DNA of 11,462 nucleotides from a virus (IMGVR_UViG_2703719355_000014:1-11462), one strand, 5' to 3'. Positions 3,218-11,451 are shown, numbered from the stretch's first letter. Notes: generated by a model from the letters alone, not told the origin. Numbers and translations: made by a program.

Positions 3218-4935
3218 AGAATTAAGAGATCATCGTCCGGATCAAGAGATGAGAGGAAATCGCCAGGTTCTTTGAGCATTGCCCGACCGATCGTCATAAT
3301 CAGTGCAACCGCACCATCGATTTTGTTTTCCGCCTGCTCCTTGACGGGCTTCACTAAATCATCGTTACCAGGCATGTTTTTGCCGACCACATTGCCGATA
3401 CACCAGGTCATGATGGGATTGCCGTCATGATGAAAGCGTCCCGATTCAATCGCTGCTTCCAGCTCTTTCATCGGATCGGACATATTGGCGAAGTTCTGGA
3501 CGATAGTGACGGGATTCAGATCTTCATCAGCAAGGTCATGTGACAGCCCGGTCGCCCCGAAGGGGTCGATGGGTGACTCACTGACCGGGCTGATTTTGTT
3601 CGCCGCTTTGGCCTAGCGATAATCCACCTCTGCACCATCGGTAACGGTCAGGACGCCCATTTCCACCCATTTCTGAAAGCGTTCGGCTGTCCGTCTATCT
3701 TCATTTTTCTCGACGCTGTACACCGTGTCATACGGTACCCAGAAGCGCGGGGCCACACTGTAGTAATGCGTTTTACCGTCAATCTCGCGGGTATAAAGTC
3801 GCGCCATGCTGTTCATATCCAGCTTACGCGCCAGGTCAAAGGCCAGAATGCACGGCTGCCCCTCGAACTGCTCAAGGGTCAGTGATTTATCCTCGCAGCT
3901 CTGCCAGCTCACCAGGTTGAAATACGCCGAACGTGCCGACACCCAGATATTGAGGTGTTTCGTTTTAAAGACGTTTGCCAGACGGGCGTTATTTTTCGCA
4001 CGCTGCTGCTGACTTAACAAAAATTCGCGATAAACCGACACGCCAATATTTGGATTGGCTTTTTCCAGCACCTGCGGGTCGGTCCAGTCGTCACCTTCAT
4101 CAACGGTATAGATGATCCCGAACAGTTCATCGTTAGGCACCGAGCCGTTGAGCATCTCGATGACTTCCCGCCGCTTGTCGTAGCACAGCCCCTCAATGTT
4201 GTACCCGGCGGTGGTGATGGCCCACATCAGTGGCTGACGTCGCGCCCCCATCCCGGTAAGCATTGTGGTATAAAGCGCATCGGTGGCATGCTCGTGATAT
4301 TCATCAACCACGGCACAGTGGGGTGATGAACCATCACCGGGGTTACCGATCAGCGGTTCAAACCGCGCGCCATCCTCCGGACGGTTCATGTTTGAGGCGT
4401 TAACCTCAATCCCGAACGCTTCCGTCAGCATGGGTGTGCGTTTACACATCAGTCGCGCCGGGCGAAAGACTTCCCACGCCTGTTTCTCTGTCGTGGCACC
4501 GGAATACACTTCCGCGCCAAACTCGTTATCACAGGCAAAACAATACAGGGCAACACCGGCAGAGATTGCTGATTTGCCGTTCTTACGGGGGATTTCGGTA
4601 TACACCTCCCGGAAGCGGCGCAACCGGGTGCCTTTATTGACCCAGCCAAACGCACAGCAGATCACAAATAGCTGCCACGGCTCCAGCGTGATGGGCATCC
4701 GTTTGAATGCCCACTCACCCTTGGTGTGCGGCAACAGCTGAATAAATTTCGCGGCCCGTTCAGCCAGGTCCTTGTCGAAGCGGTAACGAAACGACTTACT
4801 TTTTTCCGCCATCAGGTCATCAAGATGGCACTGGCAGGCCTGAATCACAAACTGGCAGGCAACAATCTTTCCGCGCACGACATCCCGGGCATACTGATTG
4901 GCAGCATTTACGTTGGGGTAAGATTTCCGGCTCAT
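3214..4935 (-). CDS. Terminase large subunit, interrupted by one in-frame TAG at 3613-3615 (possible pseudogene, suppressed amber or sequencing error)
   Basis: ORFs 3613..4935 (440 aa) and 3214..3483 are in the same frame. I translated 3484-3612 by hand and it is open in that frame (…[55 protein letters not shown]…), so a single TAG separates the two parts. Read through, the product is about 573 aa, a typical size. Its ATG overlaps the terminase small subunit stop (ATGA at 4935-4932). Confidence 0.8.
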
Positions 4936-6752: not shown

Positions 6753-7214
6753 CTATCTGCACTGCTCATTAATATACTTCTGGGTTCCTTCCAGTTGTTT
6801 TTGCATAGTGATCAGCCTCTCTCTGAGGGTGAAATAATCCCGTTCAGCGGTGTCTGCCAGTCGGGGGGAGGCTGCATTATCCACGCCGGAGGCGGTGGTG
6901 GCTTCACGCACTGACTGACAGACTGCTTTGATGTGCAACCGACGACGACCAGCGGCAACATCATCACGCAGAGCATCATTTTCAGCTTTCGCATCAGCTA
7001 ACTCCTTCGTGTATTTTGCATCGAGCGCAGCAACATCACGCTGGCGCACCTGCATGTCAGTAATTGTCGAGTTCGCCAGCTTCAGTTCTCTGGCATTTTT
7101 GTCGCGCTGGGCTTTGTAGGTAATGGCGTTATCGCGGTAATGATTAACAGCCCATGACAGGCAGACGATGATGCAGATAACCAGAGCGGAGATAATCGCG
7201 GTTACTCTGCTCAT
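6753..7214 (-). CDS. Rz: Rz i-spanin (inner-membrane spanin subunit)
   Basis: 153 aa with an N-terminal TM segment and coiled-coil periplasmic domain; nearly identical to lambda Rz from memory. Overlaps the R stop and contains Rz1 embedded in the +1 frame. Confidence 0.9.
6812..6994 (-). CDS. Rz1: Rz1 o-spanin (outer-membrane lipoprotein spanin subunit), embedded in Rz
   Basis: 60-aa ORF wholly inside Rz in another frame. Signal peptide with VVGC lipobox and a proline-rich mature region (PPPPPAW...PPPDW), as in lambda Rz1. Confidence 0.85.
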
Positions 7215-7687
7215 ACCTCAATCTCTCTGACCGTTCCGCCTGCTTCTTTGAATTTTGCAATCAGGCTGTCAGCCTTATGCTCGAACTGACCATAACCAGC
7301 ACCCGGCAGTGAAGCCCAGATATTGCTGCAACGGTCAATTGCCTGACGAATATCACCGCGATCAATCATCGGTAAAGCGCCACACTCTTTAATCTGCTGC
7401 AGAGCTACAGCGTCCTGGCTTTCTGGAGAAAAATCTTTCAGGCCAAGCTGTTTACGGTAAGCATCCCACCAGCGTGAAAGAAGCTGGTAACGTCCGGCGG
7501 CTGTTGACTTGAGTTTCGGGTTTAGCGTGACAAGTTTGCGAGGGTGATCGGAGTAATCAGTGAAGAGTTCACCACCAACAATAACGTCATAACCGTGGTT
7601 ACGTGTCGGTTGTCGTCCGTTATCCGTTCCTTCTGACCAAGCCACCATATCGAGGAAAGCTTTACGCTGGGAATTTAGTACCTGCAT
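7211..7687 (-). CDS. R: Endolysin R (lambda-type lytic transglycosylase)
   Basis: 158 aa, [26 protein letters not shown]...; nearly identical to lambda R over its full length from memory. Sits between holin and Rz. Confidence 0.9.
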
Positions 7688-7690
7688 AAA

Positions 7691-8017
7691 TTACTCCTTA
7701 GAGCCACCAAATTTGTTACCGATTACTCGCATTGCAGCCCCACGAATAGCATTGACACCGATCAGCCCCACCCCACCACCAATGGCAACAGATAGTGATT
7801 TAGGCCATCCGACATACTCAAGAGCGGATGCAAAAGTCAGCGTCAGAGCACCACAGAGTAGAATTTCGAGTGTTTTTCGCTTCCAGCCGCCACCACCGCC
7901 AAAATAGGCAATACGTAAACCAGCCATAACAATCGACATAATCACTGCGCCCAGCGGTGTGTCTCCACGCCACCAGCTCTGGACCAACTCCAGCCAGGTA
8001 TTTGGGTTATGAGGCAT
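7691..8017 (-). CDS. S: Holin, lambda S family (class I)
   Basis: 108 aa with hydrophobic helices and a basic C-terminal tail. Pattern resembles lambda S (…MAGLRIAYFGGGG… against lambda …MAYLRGRYNGG…). Immediately upstream of R. Confidence 0.8.
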   Translation of the reverse strand: MPHNPNTWLELVQSWWRGDTPLGAVIMSIVMAGLRIAYFGGGGGWKRKTLEILLCGALTLTFASALEYVGWPKSLSVAIGGGVGLIGVNAIRGAAMRVIGNKFGGSKE

Positions 8018-8159
8018 TTGTAGTTATCTCTCACCTCGCCAATACAGGAGGTGCAAATTGAGGGAACATCATGTACCGCAAATCAGAAGCGGAAACGTAA
8101 AAGAGGCCGAGCCAATGGATAACTGCGGTATAGACCAGGCTCAACAAATAGCCGGGTCC

Positions 8160-8188
8160 AGAAACGACAAACCCGCTCGACGGCGGGT
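8160..8188 (-). terminator. Candidate intrinsic terminator (tR'-like) on the minus strand
   Basis: Stem ACCCGC/GCGGGT (8171-8176 / 8183-8188) with a 6-nt loop. On the minus strand it is followed by TTGTCGTTTCT. It lies about 210 nt downstream of the candidate late promoter, comparable to the lambda pR'-tR' spacing. Confidence 0.3.
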
Positions 8189-8401
8189 TTAAGCTGTGTG
8201 GCGAAGTGACCACTCTTAACACGATACAATAGTTTTTGCGTACGCGTTAGCATTTTTGATGGAAGTTAATGGTTGTTAATCTTATACTCAGTAAACAAAA
8301 TTTATGCCGCCTTGAGCATGATGCGACATTAGGCACATGTTTGGATCTTCCTCGAAGATTCGTGCGGTAGCTATGCTCAAAATCCAATCAGCTCATAAAA
8401 C

Positions 8402-8430
8402 ATACTATGGGTTTTAAATGCTCATTCCAA
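8402..8430 (-). promoter_or_regulatory. Candidate sigma70 late promoter (pR'-like) on the minus strand
   Basis: Minus-strand TTGGAA (-35; plus 8425-8430), 17-nt spacer, TAGTAT (-10; plus 8402-8407). Overlaps the start codon of the first cassette gene on the other strand. Found by eye only and lies in AT-rich DNA where such matches arise by chance. Confidence 0.2.
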
Positions 8431-9167
8431 CATCTCTATCAAAACAACCAGTAATCGAAGCTGCTTTCGAAATGCGTTTTTCTAAAGAAACACAAATATC
8501 GGAAATAGTTCCAGGGTTTCTTTTTCACGCTCTAGGTTGTACAAAACCAGTAATTAGTTTACCACCCAGTCAAATACCTAAAAATGTTCGTGAGGGAGAT
8601 GAACAATTACATTACGCAGTTGTCAGTCGCCTCGAAATCGAAGGGTACTATATTGGACTAAGTGACCATGGTGTTGTTGTATCCACCAGCACCAAATATC
8701 AAGGGTGGAGTCATTTTAGAGAAAAAATCATTCATGTATTAAATGAGCTTAACAAATTAAATTTAAATGACAACATCATCCGCTACTCATTAAAGTATGT
8801 AGATTTTTTCCCAAAAGAAGACGATTCTAATTTATTTGATAAGCTAAACGTCAGCTTAAATATGGCTGGCGAGTCTATGTCTAATTATCCGATCAATATC
8901 AGAATCGATAAAAATGAAGGCGCATTTCTAAATATAATTCAAATATTATCTCATGCTTTAGTCATGTCAGATAATGGAGAATTTAATAAAAAAGGACTAA
9001 TCCTAGACATAGACAGTATTAGGCAAATCACTAATACTGATGAAATAGATAAGTTTAAAAACGAACCCAAAAAAATTCTTGATGATCTTCACTCCTGTAA
9101 TAAATTAGCTTTCTTTAGTTGCCTTAAAGAGTCAACAATTCAAGAACTAGAACCATCCTACAAATAG
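8418..9167 (+). CDS. Hypothetical protein (249 aa), first gene of AT-rich cassette
   Basis: Long ORF on the strand opposite to the phage late operon, with Asn/Lys/Ile-rich composition typical of low-GC DNA. TAG stop. No catalytic motif recognised; weak GGG-type RBS only. Confidence 0.7.
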   Translation: MLIPTSLSKQPVIEAAFEMRFSKETQISEIVPGFLFHALGCTKPVISLPPSQIPKNVREGDEQLHYAVVSRLEIEGYYIGLSDHGVVVSTSTKYQGWSHFREKIIHVLNELNKLNLNDNIIRYSLKYVDFFPKEDDSNLFDKLNVSLNMAGESMSNYPINIRIDKNEGAFLNIIQILSHALVMSDNGEFNKKGLILDIDSIRQITNTDEIDKFKNEPKKILDDLHSCNKLAFFSCLKESTIQELEPSYK

Positions 9168-9182
9168 AAATGGTGGTATGAT

Positions 9183-9527
9183 ATGTATCCGTCTCATCAT
9201 GTTTATCGAGCTCAACTTCAAGTATTAACTTTGGTTTTATATGGTCTGCATATAACAGCATTAACAGACATTGCCCAAAATCAACAGCATGGTCCTCAAC
9301 AAAGTTTAATCGTCAAAAATCACGCTTTGGAGTATAAGTCTTCAACTACCGATTCAGTTCATTCCATCACACAAACATATAAAGCAGGGAGCACAATCTC
9401 AGTTGATCAAAGACTTGCAGTCTCGATGACAAACTTTTATGAAAAATTATCAACAAACCAGGTGTCTTTAGGCAGTGAAATAAATAAAGTCGTTCATGCT
9501 TCACTGTGGGATTTATACTTGGATTAA
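9183..9527 (+). CDS. Hypothetical protein (114 aa), second cassette gene
   Basis: ATG at 9183 is preceded by a GGTGG Shine-Dalgarno 6 nt upstream and lies 15 nt after the upstream stop. N-terminal hydrophobic stretch (LQVLTLVLYGLHITAL) may be a membrane anchor. Stop TAA at 9525-9527. Confidence 0.6.
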   Translation: MYPSHHVYRAQLQVLTLVLYGLHITALTDIAQNQQHGPQQSLIVKNHALEYKSSTTDSVHSITQTYKAGSTISVDQRLAVSMTNFYEKLSTNQVSLGSEINKVVHASLWDLYLD

Positions 9528-9530
9528 GTG

Positions 9531-10145
9531 ATGAGTAATAACATTTTTGATATCGAGAAATTCAAAGATCAAATTCCATATTATTTAACAGCTCCTCAAA
9601 AAGAAGGGCTAATAAATGCACTTAGAGATTTCCCTGAAAACACTAACTACTACCTTACCAATTATCATGATGATCTGAAAAATGCTGCACTTCAGGGAGA
9701 TATATTTAAGGAGCTTACAGTATATTCAATTAAAGGGACTAAAAAAACACGAGGAATTATATTAAGCAACAGTTGCGATATAGATACAAGTAATAATCGT
9801 GATGTGCCAATGCGTGCAGTCTTTGCTCCGTTAGTAAGTTTATCTAAGTTCGAAGCTATTCTTCTCTCCAACGGAGTTTCTAAGACTTCAATAGATAGCA
9901 AAATTGATGCTATAAGGAAGCAGTTAATTACTAATATTTTTTATCTTCCTGAATCAGACAACTTAGAAGAATGCATCGTTTTTCTTGATGATGTATACCA
10001 ATTACCAACGGAAGAATTACAAAAACTCTTGAATGATAAATGCAAAGCCATAACTTTAAGTCAAGTTGGTTTCTACATTTTACTATTCAAAATATCTATT
10101 CACTTTTGTAGATTCCATGAAAACATACAACGATTCGATCATTAA
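9531..10145 (+). CDS. Hypothetical protein (204 aa), third cassette gene
   Basis: Start ATG 9531 (or GTG 9528) immediately follows the upstream TAA, giving TAAGTGATG and suggesting translational coupling. No recognisable domain. TAA stop directly followed by an intrinsic terminator. Confidence 0.7.
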   Translation: MSNNIFDIEKFKDQIPYYLTAPQKEGLINALRDFPENTNYYLTNYHDDLKNAALQGDIFKELTVYSIKGTKKTRGIILSNSCDIDTSNNRDVPMRAVFAPLVSLSKFEAILLSNGVSKTSIDSKIDAIRKQLITNIFYLPESDNLEECIVFLDDVYQLPTEELQKLLNDKCKAITLSQVGFYILLFKISIHFCRFHENIQRFDH

Positions 10146-10172
10146 GGCGGTACTACCGCCTTTTATTATTTT
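10144..10172 (+). terminator. Rho-independent terminator of the cassette operon
   Basis: AAGGCGG-tacta-CCGCCTT stem-loop directly followed by TTTTATTATTTT on the plus strand. The T-tract overlaps the stop codon of the convergent Q gene. Confidence 0.6.
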
Positions 10173-10515
10173 ACACAAGTATACTTACAACCCCCTCTAT
10201 AAAACCGATTGCGGTTTGCAACTCCTTCCTAATAGTGCCATCAGAGCACCTTCTCTTTTTGGCAATAGTGCGTAATGAGATACCAATAACAAAGTGGGCT
10301 ATGATGAGCTCATATTCCTCTGGTTTATACCTTCTCAACCGAGCCACACAACTGTCTATCATAATGCCTTCGTCATCATCACACTGAATCCGTGACTTTT
10401 TGCCATGAGGTAAAAGCCCCTTGAAGCCTGCTGCTACCGGCTGCCAGTCCACACCACTGTTGTCTGCTGCAGCCCATGCTCCCCAGCGGTCCAATACTTC
10501 ATACATATCACGCAT
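10171..10515 (-). CDS. Late-gene antitermination protein Q (QuuD-like, Phage_antitermQ family)
   Basis: Translation from the ATG at 10515 (MRDMYEVLDRWGAWAAADNSGVDWQPVAAGFKGL...CSDGTIRKELQTAIGFIEG...) resembles the DLP12 QuuD-type Q proteins as I recall them. GGAG Shine-Dalgarno 7 nt upstream; the ORF-track TTG start at 10530 is less likely. Confidence 0.75.
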   Translation of the reverse strand: MRDMYEVLDRWGAWAAADNSGVDWQPVAAGFKGLLPHGKKSRIQCDDDEGIMIDSCVARLRRYKPEEYELIIAHFVIGISLRTIAKKRRCSDGTIRKELQTAIGFIEGVVSILV

Positions 10516-10533: not shown

Positions 10534-11451
10534 TCAGGCCAGCACGCCAATTGCCAGCGCACGATCGATAAAACGAAATATCAGCTCCAGCTGGGAGCCA
10601 TACTTCTCTTCAAATGCCACGGTATCCGCATGCAGCTCGTCGTGATGCTTTCTGCACAAAGGCAACACAAAGAGATCATGCGCTTTTGTACCCATTCCAC
10701 CCTGACCGTGGCCTATCAGGTGGTGGGGATCATCAGCAGGCTTTCCACAACATGCACACGGTTGCGTCTTAACCCAGCGCGTGTACTTTTCATTAACCCA
10801 GCGGCGACGTTTTGGGCGTAACATAAAAGACTCCGGCGACTCCGGATCCACTTTCAGCGCCAGCACCTTTTTCGCTTTATCCTGGATGATGCTGGTGGCA
10901 GGAACCGAAGGCACAAGGTCACTTTCCCGGGTGACAGATGGCACAACAGGCTTCGGTAATCTCAGTGCCTTACGGGCTGCACTTTCCGGTAAGGCATCCG
11001 CCAGATCATTACGAATCAACCACCAGCACAGTTCCGGCATTGTCACAACGTGACTGTCATCAAAACCGAGATCCCGACGCACAACAGACAACACCCAGCG
11101 GGCACAGTTATCCGTTGCCATTGATTCCAGCCATTCCGTGAACTGATCGCGCAGCTGGTTATCGCAGTGCCAGCACAGACGGATTGCGCCCGGAGCGTGT
11201 CGCATTGTGGTCATGTTCTCGCTGTGCCAGTCGGAATGAGGCCACTGGCAGCCTTTTTCACGAAGTAACCAGCTTTCAAGACATTCCACGCCACCAGCAC
11301 GACGGATCACTGCCTCATTGCGGAACACGGCCCGAACGGCAGGATCATCCGCCAGCGGTTGTGATGCCGCCGGAACGGCACCACTGGCGAAAGATGAGTA
11401 ACGTTCCGGCTCAGGCTCCAGCAGGACACGCCCCTGCATAAACAGGGGCAT
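10534..11451 (-). CDS. DUF968-family phage protein (putative HNH-like zinc-binding protein, YdfU-like)
   Basis: C-terminal CxxC...HH...C..HH motif (QPCACCGKPADDPHHLIGHGQGG...LCRKHHDELH) typical of DUF968 proteins that sit upstream of Q in lambdoid prophages. The frame stays open from 11452 to the window end, so the true start may lie beyond the window. Confidence 0.7.
   Translation of the reverse strand: MPLFMQGRVLLEPEPERYSSFASGAVPAASQPLADDPAVRAVFRNEAVIRRAGGVECLESWLLREKGCQWPHSDWHSENMTTMRHAPGAIRLCWHCDNQLRDQFTEWLESMATDNCARWVLSVVRRDLGFDDSHVVTMPELCWWLIRNDLADALPESAARKALRLPKPVVPSVTRESDLVPSVPATSIIQDKAKKVLALKVDPESPESFMLRPKRRRWVNEKYTRWVKTQPCACCGKPADDPHHLIGHGQGGMGTKAHDLFVLPLCRKHHDELHADTVAFEEKYGSQLELIFRFIDRALAIGVLA

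Follow-up and report, generated by a model that had tools for sequence, protein, structure and literature searches.

The DNA from 8261 to 8160 on the minus strand of the window (the whole stretch of 11,462 nucleotides of viral DNA analysed here) is very probably the Q-dependent late regulatory unit of a lambdoid prophage of the phage 21 family (PF06530). The window belongs to a lambdoid E. coli prophage resembling SfII, SfIV and DLP12, with the late genes on the minus strand; read in the sense of that strand, the gene order is Q, a three-gene cargo cassette carried on the plus strand, holin, endolysin and Rz, and S, R and Rz are the first late genes under this switch. The hairpin located upstream of S is a genuine early stop signal of the late operon, and the late promoter lies about 50 bases upstream of the hairpin, not 210 as an earlier note had proposed. 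The switch is an ordinary one of the phage 21 type, a known kind in the Q21 family and homologous to that of DLP12, and this prophage is a further member of the group. The result is chiefly a correction: the lambda template had led to a misplaced promoter in what is an ordinary late switch; the Q-specific palindromic motifs and the hotspot for cargo are modestly interesting by-products.

In the mechanism that we propose, the sigma-70 RNA polymerase would start at A8214, helped by a UP-like A-run, a weak -35 region and the -10 element TATCGT, and the prophage's own Q would dock on a motif of about 18 bp (a palindrome plus an A-tract) between the A-run/-35 region and the -10 element. Without Q, transcription would halt about 53 nt on, at the hairpin 8190-8169 and its U-rich tail; with Q loaded near the start site, the polymerase would read through into the holin, endolysin, Rz and virion genes. 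The late start and stop are in this way placed for this prophage family, which is needed for annotation and for predicting what the cargo sees. Moreover, the same block drives stx in several Stx1/Stx2 phages, and a map of promoter, Q site and terminator matters for toxin regulation.

The Q gene is located upstream of the late genes and on the same (minus) strand; its mechanical ORF begins at TTG 10530. The protein belongs to PF06530, the Q21/Q933W family (Yin et al., bioRxiv 10.1101/651190), and not to the lambda Q family PF03589 (Pfam). It shares 85% identity with the Q of SfII, 53% with the Q of SfIV and 46% with K-12 QuuD, and its match to the phage 21 Q structures 6P18/6JNX is distant (E = 0.0014). 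At the DNA level S and R are 92-95% identical to their counterparts in the Shigella phages SfII and SfIV. An HNH endonuclease gene (PF01844; 5552-6001, minus strand) is located further downstream of the lysis genes, as it is in SfIV; it is the usual partner of terminase in this phage group. A tRNA search of the window with ARAGORN found none. The features of the window and of the phage 21 unit are collected in Table 1.

Table 1. Features of the window and, for comparison, of the late unit of phage 21 (locus L129)
Feature	Position	Strand	Remarks
DUF968/HNH protein	10534-11451	minus	context gene beyond Q
Q antiterminator gene	10171-10515	minus	114 aa from ATG 10515; Pfam PF06530 Phage_antitermQ, E = 1.4e-44
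Cassette intrinsic terminator	10144-10162	plus	AAGGCGGTACTACCGCCTT then TTATTATTTT; within the 25-nt gap from cassette stop to Q stop
Cargo cassette, three genes	8418-10145	plus	antisense to the late operon, between Q and the late promoter
Gene C	9528-10145	plus	205 aa
Gene B	9183-9527	plus	114 aa
Gene A	8418-9167	plus	249 aa; TIGR04255 family, E = 2.6e-27
Candidate promoter TTGGAA-17-TAGTAT	8402-8430	minus	8/12 consensus, at chance frequency; no support as a functional site
Cassette-specific upstream DNA	8258-8417		presumed cassette promoter and 5' UTR
A-run CATCAAAAATG	8251-8261	minus	about -47 to -37; UP-element-like tract, left edge of the shared block
Putative Q-binding element CTAACGCGTACGCAAAAAC	8232-8250	minus	-36 to -18; motif of about 18 bp, unique in the window
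-10 element TATCGT	8221-8226	minus	conserved TAnnnT; DLP12 start 7 nt after the homologous hexamer
Candidate sigma-dependent pause element AAGAGT	8212-8217	minus	only xAxxxT hexamer near the start, -3 to +3
Putative late-operon start A	8214	minus	TATCGT-GTTAAG-A-GTGG; transferred by homology from DLP12
tR'-like intrinsic terminator	8160-8191	minus	stem 8190-8183/8176-8169, U-rich tail UUUGUCGUUUC to about 8160
S holin	7691-8017	minus	Pfam Phage_holin_3_1 / Phage_lysis matches for the lysis genes
R endolysin	7211-7687	minus	lysis gene after S
Rz	6753-7214	minus	lysis gene after R
Phage 21 -35 TTGACA	L129 1939-1944		OL657228.1 annotation
Phage 21 QBE ATTGAGCA + AATGAGCA	L129 1947-1962		OL657228.1 annotation
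Phage 21 -10 AACACT	L129 1962-1967		OL657228.1 annotation
Phage 21 start A	L129 1974		OL657228.1 annotation
Phage 21 pause element TAAGCTG	L129 1975-1981		OL657228.1 annotation
Phage 21 terminator	L129 1976-2023		OL657228.1 annotation

Extent of the shared block and position of the late start

Homology to SfII ends at 8258, and in an alignment of the DNA upstream of S the window, SfII and SfIV are nearly identical up to about 8250 and share nothing beyond. Of 5,426 complete E. coli genomes, 92 have the cassette; in each of them it occupies exactly the same junction, with at least 99% identity, and all other matches in the genomes searched start at 8257 and run downwards. Because cassette-less prophages match only from 8257 downwards, the DNA at 8258-8417 is part of the cassette rather than of the late regulatory region. 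Between Q and S of SfII and SfIV there are plus-strand cargo genes as well, but these differ from the ones of the window, and in K-12 DLP12 the same block is located upstream of essD, after the antisense porin gene nmpC.

The constant leader of the block was found in at least 120 IMG/VR contigs by an exact-pattern scan, and BLAST of 8155-8262 against phage records returned 81 records with the block, including 434B, PA-2, cdtI, phiP27, Stx1a and Stx2a phages and one Klebsiella phage. The Elizabethkingia phage EKP1 (OM284015.1), an unexpected host range, has a 33-nt stretch of the constant leader at 94% identity, which could reflect chance, contamination or transfer. Nine loci are free of cargo; in these the Q match ends just 80-103 nt before the constant leader, and the stop of the Q reading frame falls in the A-rich tract or at the left edge of the motif. 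The late promoter of the cargo-free loci must therefore sit inside the block, and models that require DNA further upstream are excluded.

The anatomy of the block was derived from 39 unique variants aligned on the constant leader; in this pattern-derived set positions -6 to +22 are invariant by construction, and independent support for their conservation comes from the BLAST hits only. In the hexamer that abuts GTTAAGAG, -12T is found in 95% of the variants and -11A and -7T in all of them (100%), while -10 to -8 vary freely; judged from the aligned sequences, this TAnnnT pattern is the signature of a sigma-70 -10 element. Upstream of the hexamer, positions -23 to -19 form an A/T tract and -31 to -24 a GC-rich core, and beyond them an A-run peaks at -41. 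The frequency of A is 62-85% at -43 to -40, and at least four consecutive A are present within -48 to -37 in 25 of the 39 variants; the A-run may act as a UP element. The -35 region, CTAACG at a spacing of 18 nt, is a poor one, and the promoter as a whole, which matches the consensus at 7/12 positions, was not listed by the consensus scan.

The start site is known from DLP12. In the MG1655 start-site table obtained by Cappable-seq (Ettwiller et al. 2016, PMC4782308, Additional file 1) there is a plus-strand start at U00096.2 576,452, which is NC_000913.3 577,229. It corresponds to position 3730 of the DLP12 locus L003 (NC_000913.3 573500-578500), namely to the A of TATGCT-GTTAAG-A-GTGG, 7 nt after the hexamer, and the homologous base of the window is A8214. 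The shift between the two genome versions is here +777, a 776-bp IS1 plus 1 bp in ylbE; the other differences, a 1,199-bp IS5 and 1 bp in glpR, complete the four that make up the full 1,977-bp length difference. An internal check agrees with this shift, which brings a strong start nearby (576,081) to a position precisely 7 nt past the hexamer TATTAT. The Cappable-seq score of the DLP12 late start is low (1.7); short terminated RNAs may have been under-sampled. Since the DLP12 start lies 7 nt after the homologous hexamer, TAnnnT is the -10 element of the promoter and not a downstream pause element. By homology, through the 39 variants and the DLP12 start, the late genes are closely preceded by a sigma-70 promoter whose start site is defined.

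Two other hexamers were rejected as the -10 element: TATTGT (8230-8225), which would leave TAAGAG as a 21-like SDPE, has at position 2 an A that other variants do not keep, and the DLP12 start suits the abutting hexamer instead; AAAAAT (8257-8252), in the A-run, is not conserved. The minus-strand ORFs 8083-8253 and 8247-8387 are regarded as spurious, being unconserved (for example, the ATG is lost in SfII).

The strong start of DLP12 mentioned above (position 3359 of the locus, score 90), 33 nt away from the start codon of nmpC, is on the plus strand and reads towards the late start, which lies 371 nt further downstream. A consensus promoter scan of the DLP12 intergenic region found nothing, though two starts are mapped there; consensus scans are uninformative here, and the homology-supported 7/12 promoter of the window was missed as well. 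The cargo-side start of DLP12 speaks for a secondary, Q-independent minus-strand promoter in the window too, formed by the hexamers at 8430-8402 or by another site in 8258-8417, whose transcripts would end at the hairpin, and it is general knowledge that AT-rich divergent regions often fire both ways. The corresponding sequence of the window is however not conserved and its hexamers are at chance level, so that we regard such a promoter as unlikely. It could coexist with the unit at 8261-8160, and it would not be the Q-controlled late switch.

The Q-subtype motif and competing promoter positions

The putative Q-binding element contains the palindrome GCGTACGC at 8245-8238 (-31 to -24), followed by an A5 tract at 8237-8233. 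The Q proteins of about 100 loci were sorted into clusters with an identity threshold of 80%, and the clusters were tabulated against the motif found at -33 to -12. The cluster to which the Q of the window belongs (19 loci plus SfII, 86-100% identical, 10 different Q-to-block distances) has the core GCGTACGC. The SfIV type and the no-cargo type (clusters 2 and 3; 20 loci, 12 distances) have GCGGTCCGC, with GCGTTCCGC in one locus, and the QuuD type (55 loci, 5 distances) has TTTACGTACGTAAA, TTTACGATCGTAAA or TTTACAATCGTAAA. Three Qs are singletons with one locus each, L110 with TTTACGTACGTAAA, L099 with TTCGTTACGAA and phiP27 (L128) with GGAATTCC. The type of motif follows the Q cluster with zero exceptions, across many different cargo inserts.

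Because it changes in step with the Q subtype, the motif is taken as the probable Q-binding element. The correlation could partly be due to linkage of neighbouring DNA, but the repeated replacement of the cargo argues against this; functional coupling is favoured over mere linkage because the leader is common to all clusters while the intervening cargo has been repeatedly replaced. In phage 21 the QBE is found between the -35 and -10 elements (Shi et al. 2019, PMC6606751). The motif of the window co-varies with the Q cluster, and its symmetry is unlike that of the Q21 QBE. Dyad symmetry is in fact present in the motif of every subtype (GCGTACGC, GCGGTCCGC, TTTACGTACGTAAA and GGAATTCC), and the form of these sequences makes a binding mode different from that of the tandem Q21 QBE possible.

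The same symmetry, together with the direct repeat of the solved Q21 QBE (Yin et al.; PMC6606751), would suit a palindrome at 8245-8238 bound by a factor other than Q, such as a dimeric repressor or a host protein, with the correlation to Q type as mere linkage. This is rather improbable: the motif stays with its Q cluster through at least 10 different cargo inserts per cluster, the leader downstream of it being shared by every cluster, it sits at the position of the phage 21 QBE, and the block has no other subtype-specific element. If the motif is the Q site, as we prefer to read it, a more speculative proposal can be advanced, which we hold only tentatively and consider doubtful as a whole: the Q site in this branch of the Q21 family would be dyad-symmetric (AT-rich flank, GC core, inverted copy), implying another loading geometry for two Q protomers, and the junction from the Q stop to the site would be a dedicated hotspot for swapped antisense cargo, probably defence or fitness cassettes. 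The motifs specific for Q subtypes offer a ready set of natural specificity swaps with which DNA recognition by antiterminators of the Q21 family can be studied.

A different arrangement has the promoter at TTAACA-16-AAAAAT (8279-8252, start about 8245), with TATCGT as the pause element and the Q motif in the early transcribed region. Near the block no other pair on the minus strand reaches 9/12, a TAnnnT with invariant A and T would also suit a pause element, and the distance from the motif to TATCGT resembles that from QBE to SDPE in phage 21. However, the -35 hexamer lies in cassette-specific DNA; the equivalent -10 of SfII, AAAAAC, lacks the T that is essential, and a hexamer is missing at this place in other variants; the DLP12 start is 7 nt after the TAnnnT hexamer and not upstream of the motif; and in the cargo-free loci the position falls in the Q coding sequence. 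The arrangement is very improbable.

The promoter proposed in the earlier note overlaps the first start codon of the cassette. Its hexamers are indeed present, TTGGAA (8430-8425) and TAGTAT (8407-8402) being separated by 17 nt that include the complement of the gene A ATG (8418-8420), but they occur at the frequency of chance only. The match to the consensus (4+4 = 8/12) is under the 9/12 threshold of the scan, so the pair was not listed. Pairs of at least 4+4 whose -10 hexamer has A as its second and T as its sixth base were counted on both strands of the window and in 100 dinucleotide-preserving shuffles; 49 were observed vs 51.2 +/- 6.8 in the shuffles, and the pair is thus devoid of statistical weight. 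Its 3' part is included in 8258-8417 and the remainder runs into gene A; this cassette-specific DNA is not found in any related prophage with the same late block, and the pair is kept only within this one cassette lineage. That it should be the Q-responsive late promoter, with a lambda-like leader of about 235 nt to the hairpin 8190-8169 and interference with the start of gene A, is scarcely credible: the hexamers and their spacer exist, the terminator is genuine and the strong DLP12 start near the cargo start codon has the same direction, but the match is at chance frequency, the DNA is missing in all other prophages with the same Q type and late block, these prophages, some with only about 45 nt from the cargo start codon to the block, must use another promoter, no Q-subtype-specific motif is found near 8430-8402, and units of the Q21 family are about 50 nt long.

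The chosen hexamers are about 190-215 nt too far upstream, and the cause is the use of the lambda 194-nt unit as a template. The spacing of about 210 nt was arithmetically right, but it is not the distance from the real promoter to the terminator. Rather than overlapping the gene A start codon, the late promoter is located about 170-200 nt from it, and any interplay with the cassette promoter would fall around 8250-8300 and not, as the supposed divergent interference required, at 8402-8430. The position of the late promoter on the far side of the cassette from Q, directed away from the cassette, was correctly predicted.

Terminator, leader and known late switches

The hairpin with a T-rich tail that the earlier note had described at 8188-8160 was confirmed by the scan and by RNA folding, and its role as a tR'-like terminator of the late operon is supported by folding and conservation. 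The scan returned a 9-pair stem with 5 GC pairs at 8191-8168, followed by TCGTTTCTGG; it returned 19 terminator-like sites in the window, with 10.0 +/- 3.7 expected. Folding of the 60-nt leader (8214-8155) gave a loop CGUCGA and -20.4 kcal/mol (z = -2.2). The hairpin is found at the same place in essentially all related loci, and of 42 unique variants 40 have a GC hairpin with a T-run after the constant leader, the hairpin sequence being a different one in several lineages; the terminator role is supported because the function is retained despite replacement of the hairpin sequence. An intrinsic terminator is present a few tens of nucleotides after the start and upstream of the late genes, and the leader RNA expected from a start at A8214 is about 53 nt long. 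The U-tract of the window is interrupted (UUUGUCGUUUC), and therefore its terminator may be less efficient than the DLP12 version. A second hairpin of the scan, 8175-8153, is regarded as incidental, overlapping the 3' arm of the terminator and being unconserved in SfII/SfIV.

The whole window has no Rfam match at E <= 1, and thus the leader corresponds to no catalogued RNA family. The minimum-energy fold of the full 5' leader (8018-8214, minus strand) has -64.3 kcal/mol (z = -2.7); in the predicted fold the first 15 nt or so of the late transcript pair with GGCGAGGUGAGAG at the ribosome-binding site of S, and GUGGU...GCCAC (8213-8198) is predicted to form a small hairpin at the 5' end.

Among the closest known units is that of phage 21 (OL657228.1), in which -35, QBE, -10, TSS, SDPE and terminator lie within about 85 bp and the terminator ends at about +50. 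The two systems have in common a Q of family PF06530, a Q motif (putative in the window) between the -35 region and the -10 element, a weak -10 that keeps only -11A and -7T, a start at an A 7 nt after the -10, and a terminator that ends about 50 nt after the start and is followed by lysis genes. They differ in several respects: the Q proteins are only distantly related (E = 0.0014), the phage 21 QBE consists of two tandem (A/T)TGAGCA subsites whereas the motif of the window is a palindrome with an A/T tract, and the window lacks both a consensus TTGACA -35 and an evident pause element at +2 to +7. Over the wider interval +1 to +10, too, a clear sigma-dependent pause element is absent, and the next xAxxxT hexamer is CAGCTT at +19 to +24; the candidate AAGAGT resembles the phage 21 SDPE TAAGCT(G) in sequence but is located at -3 to +3 and not at +2 to +7. 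The distance from Q to the promoter is 6 nt in phage 21 and 1.95 kb, filled with antisense cargo, in the window.

In K-12 DLP12 (quuD - nmpC - essD) the Q is homologous (46%) and the block, located upstream of the holin, is nearly identical to that of the window from -6 to the hairpin, with the start mapped at the homologous A. DLP12, PA-2 and 434B carry an antisense porin gene (nmpC/lc) as cargo between Q and the block, the same arrangement as in the window. The Q subtype and the motif differ (TTTACGTACGTAAAAAA in DLP12 vs CTAACGCGTACGCAAAAA in the window), as do the cargo and the holin, which is class II and S21-like in DLP12 and a lambda-like S in the window. QuuD reportedly controls the DLP12 lysis cassette. 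A literature search on the sequence of the block and on the DLP12 Q/essD termini returned nothing relevant; a NET-seq paper on sigma pausing did not include DLP12.

The lambda pR'-6S RNA-tR' unit resembles that of the window in having a constitutive promoter by the late genes, an early terminator and a promoter-loaded Q that overrides the terminator, but lambda Q belongs to the unrelated family PF03589. The lambda leader is 194 nt long, its promoter is located directly after Q, and its QBE and pause element differ from those of the window. A lambda-type unit would have a PF03589 Q and a leader of about 190-200 nt, and the window has about 53 nt; the analogy drawn in the earlier note with a leader of about 200 nt fails, the Q being in the Q21 family and the unit about 50 nt long.

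Stx1a and Stx2a phages (Stx2a_WGPS2, Stx1_14744, phiP27) carry the same block at 84-94% identity, after antisense cargo and upstream of late genes including stx. A methylase, tRNAs and stx are found downstream of their terminator, whereas in the window S follows the block directly.

The cargo cassette and its insertion site

Genes B and C gave no Pfam, NCBIfam or PADLOC match, and beyond the TIGR04255 assignment of gene A the cassette has no Pfam or PADLOC identity; where it sits and how compact it is point to a defence or fitness module not yet characterised. Located upstream of the late promoter and divergent from it, the cassette is not a late gene.

From the Q stop at 10171 to the block at 8257 there are about 1.9-1.95 kb of antisense cargo, and the unusual distance of 1.95 kb between Q and the promoter exists because the antisense cassette entered precisely at the junction of the Q stop codon with the promoter block. 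The promoter does not follow immediately after the Q gene here, and the two are adjacent in only 9 of about 100 loci; adjacency of Q and promoter is typical but not defining, and separation by cargo is the commonest arrangement in this Q subfamily. At the same junction the approximately 100 loci carry at least 20 different inserts of 560-2,950 bp, almost all of them antisense to the late operon; the exceptions, with an ORF on the same strand, are phiP27 (a GIY-YIG nuclease) and the locus L116. If the junction is a true hotspot, this placement would shield the cargo from late transcription and expose it to antisense read-through from the early operon in lytic growth.

On the minus strand at 10144-10162 the hairpin of the cassette terminator is followed by TTAATGATCG, with no U-run. 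Minus-strand early transcripts that pass the Q stop would meet no obvious terminator at 10144-10170 and would run antisense through the entire cassette in the direction of the late promoter.

In the cassette DNA just upstream of the late block there is a direct repeat with a 10-bp period, ATTAACaacc ATTAACttcc (8261-8280, minus strand), which may be the cassette's own promoter/operator, back to back with the late promoter. Two plus-strand hexamer pairs overlap the repeat, TTGTTA-17-CAAAAT at 8273-8301 and TGGAAG-17-TATACT at 8260-8288, each with 8/12 matches to the consensus.
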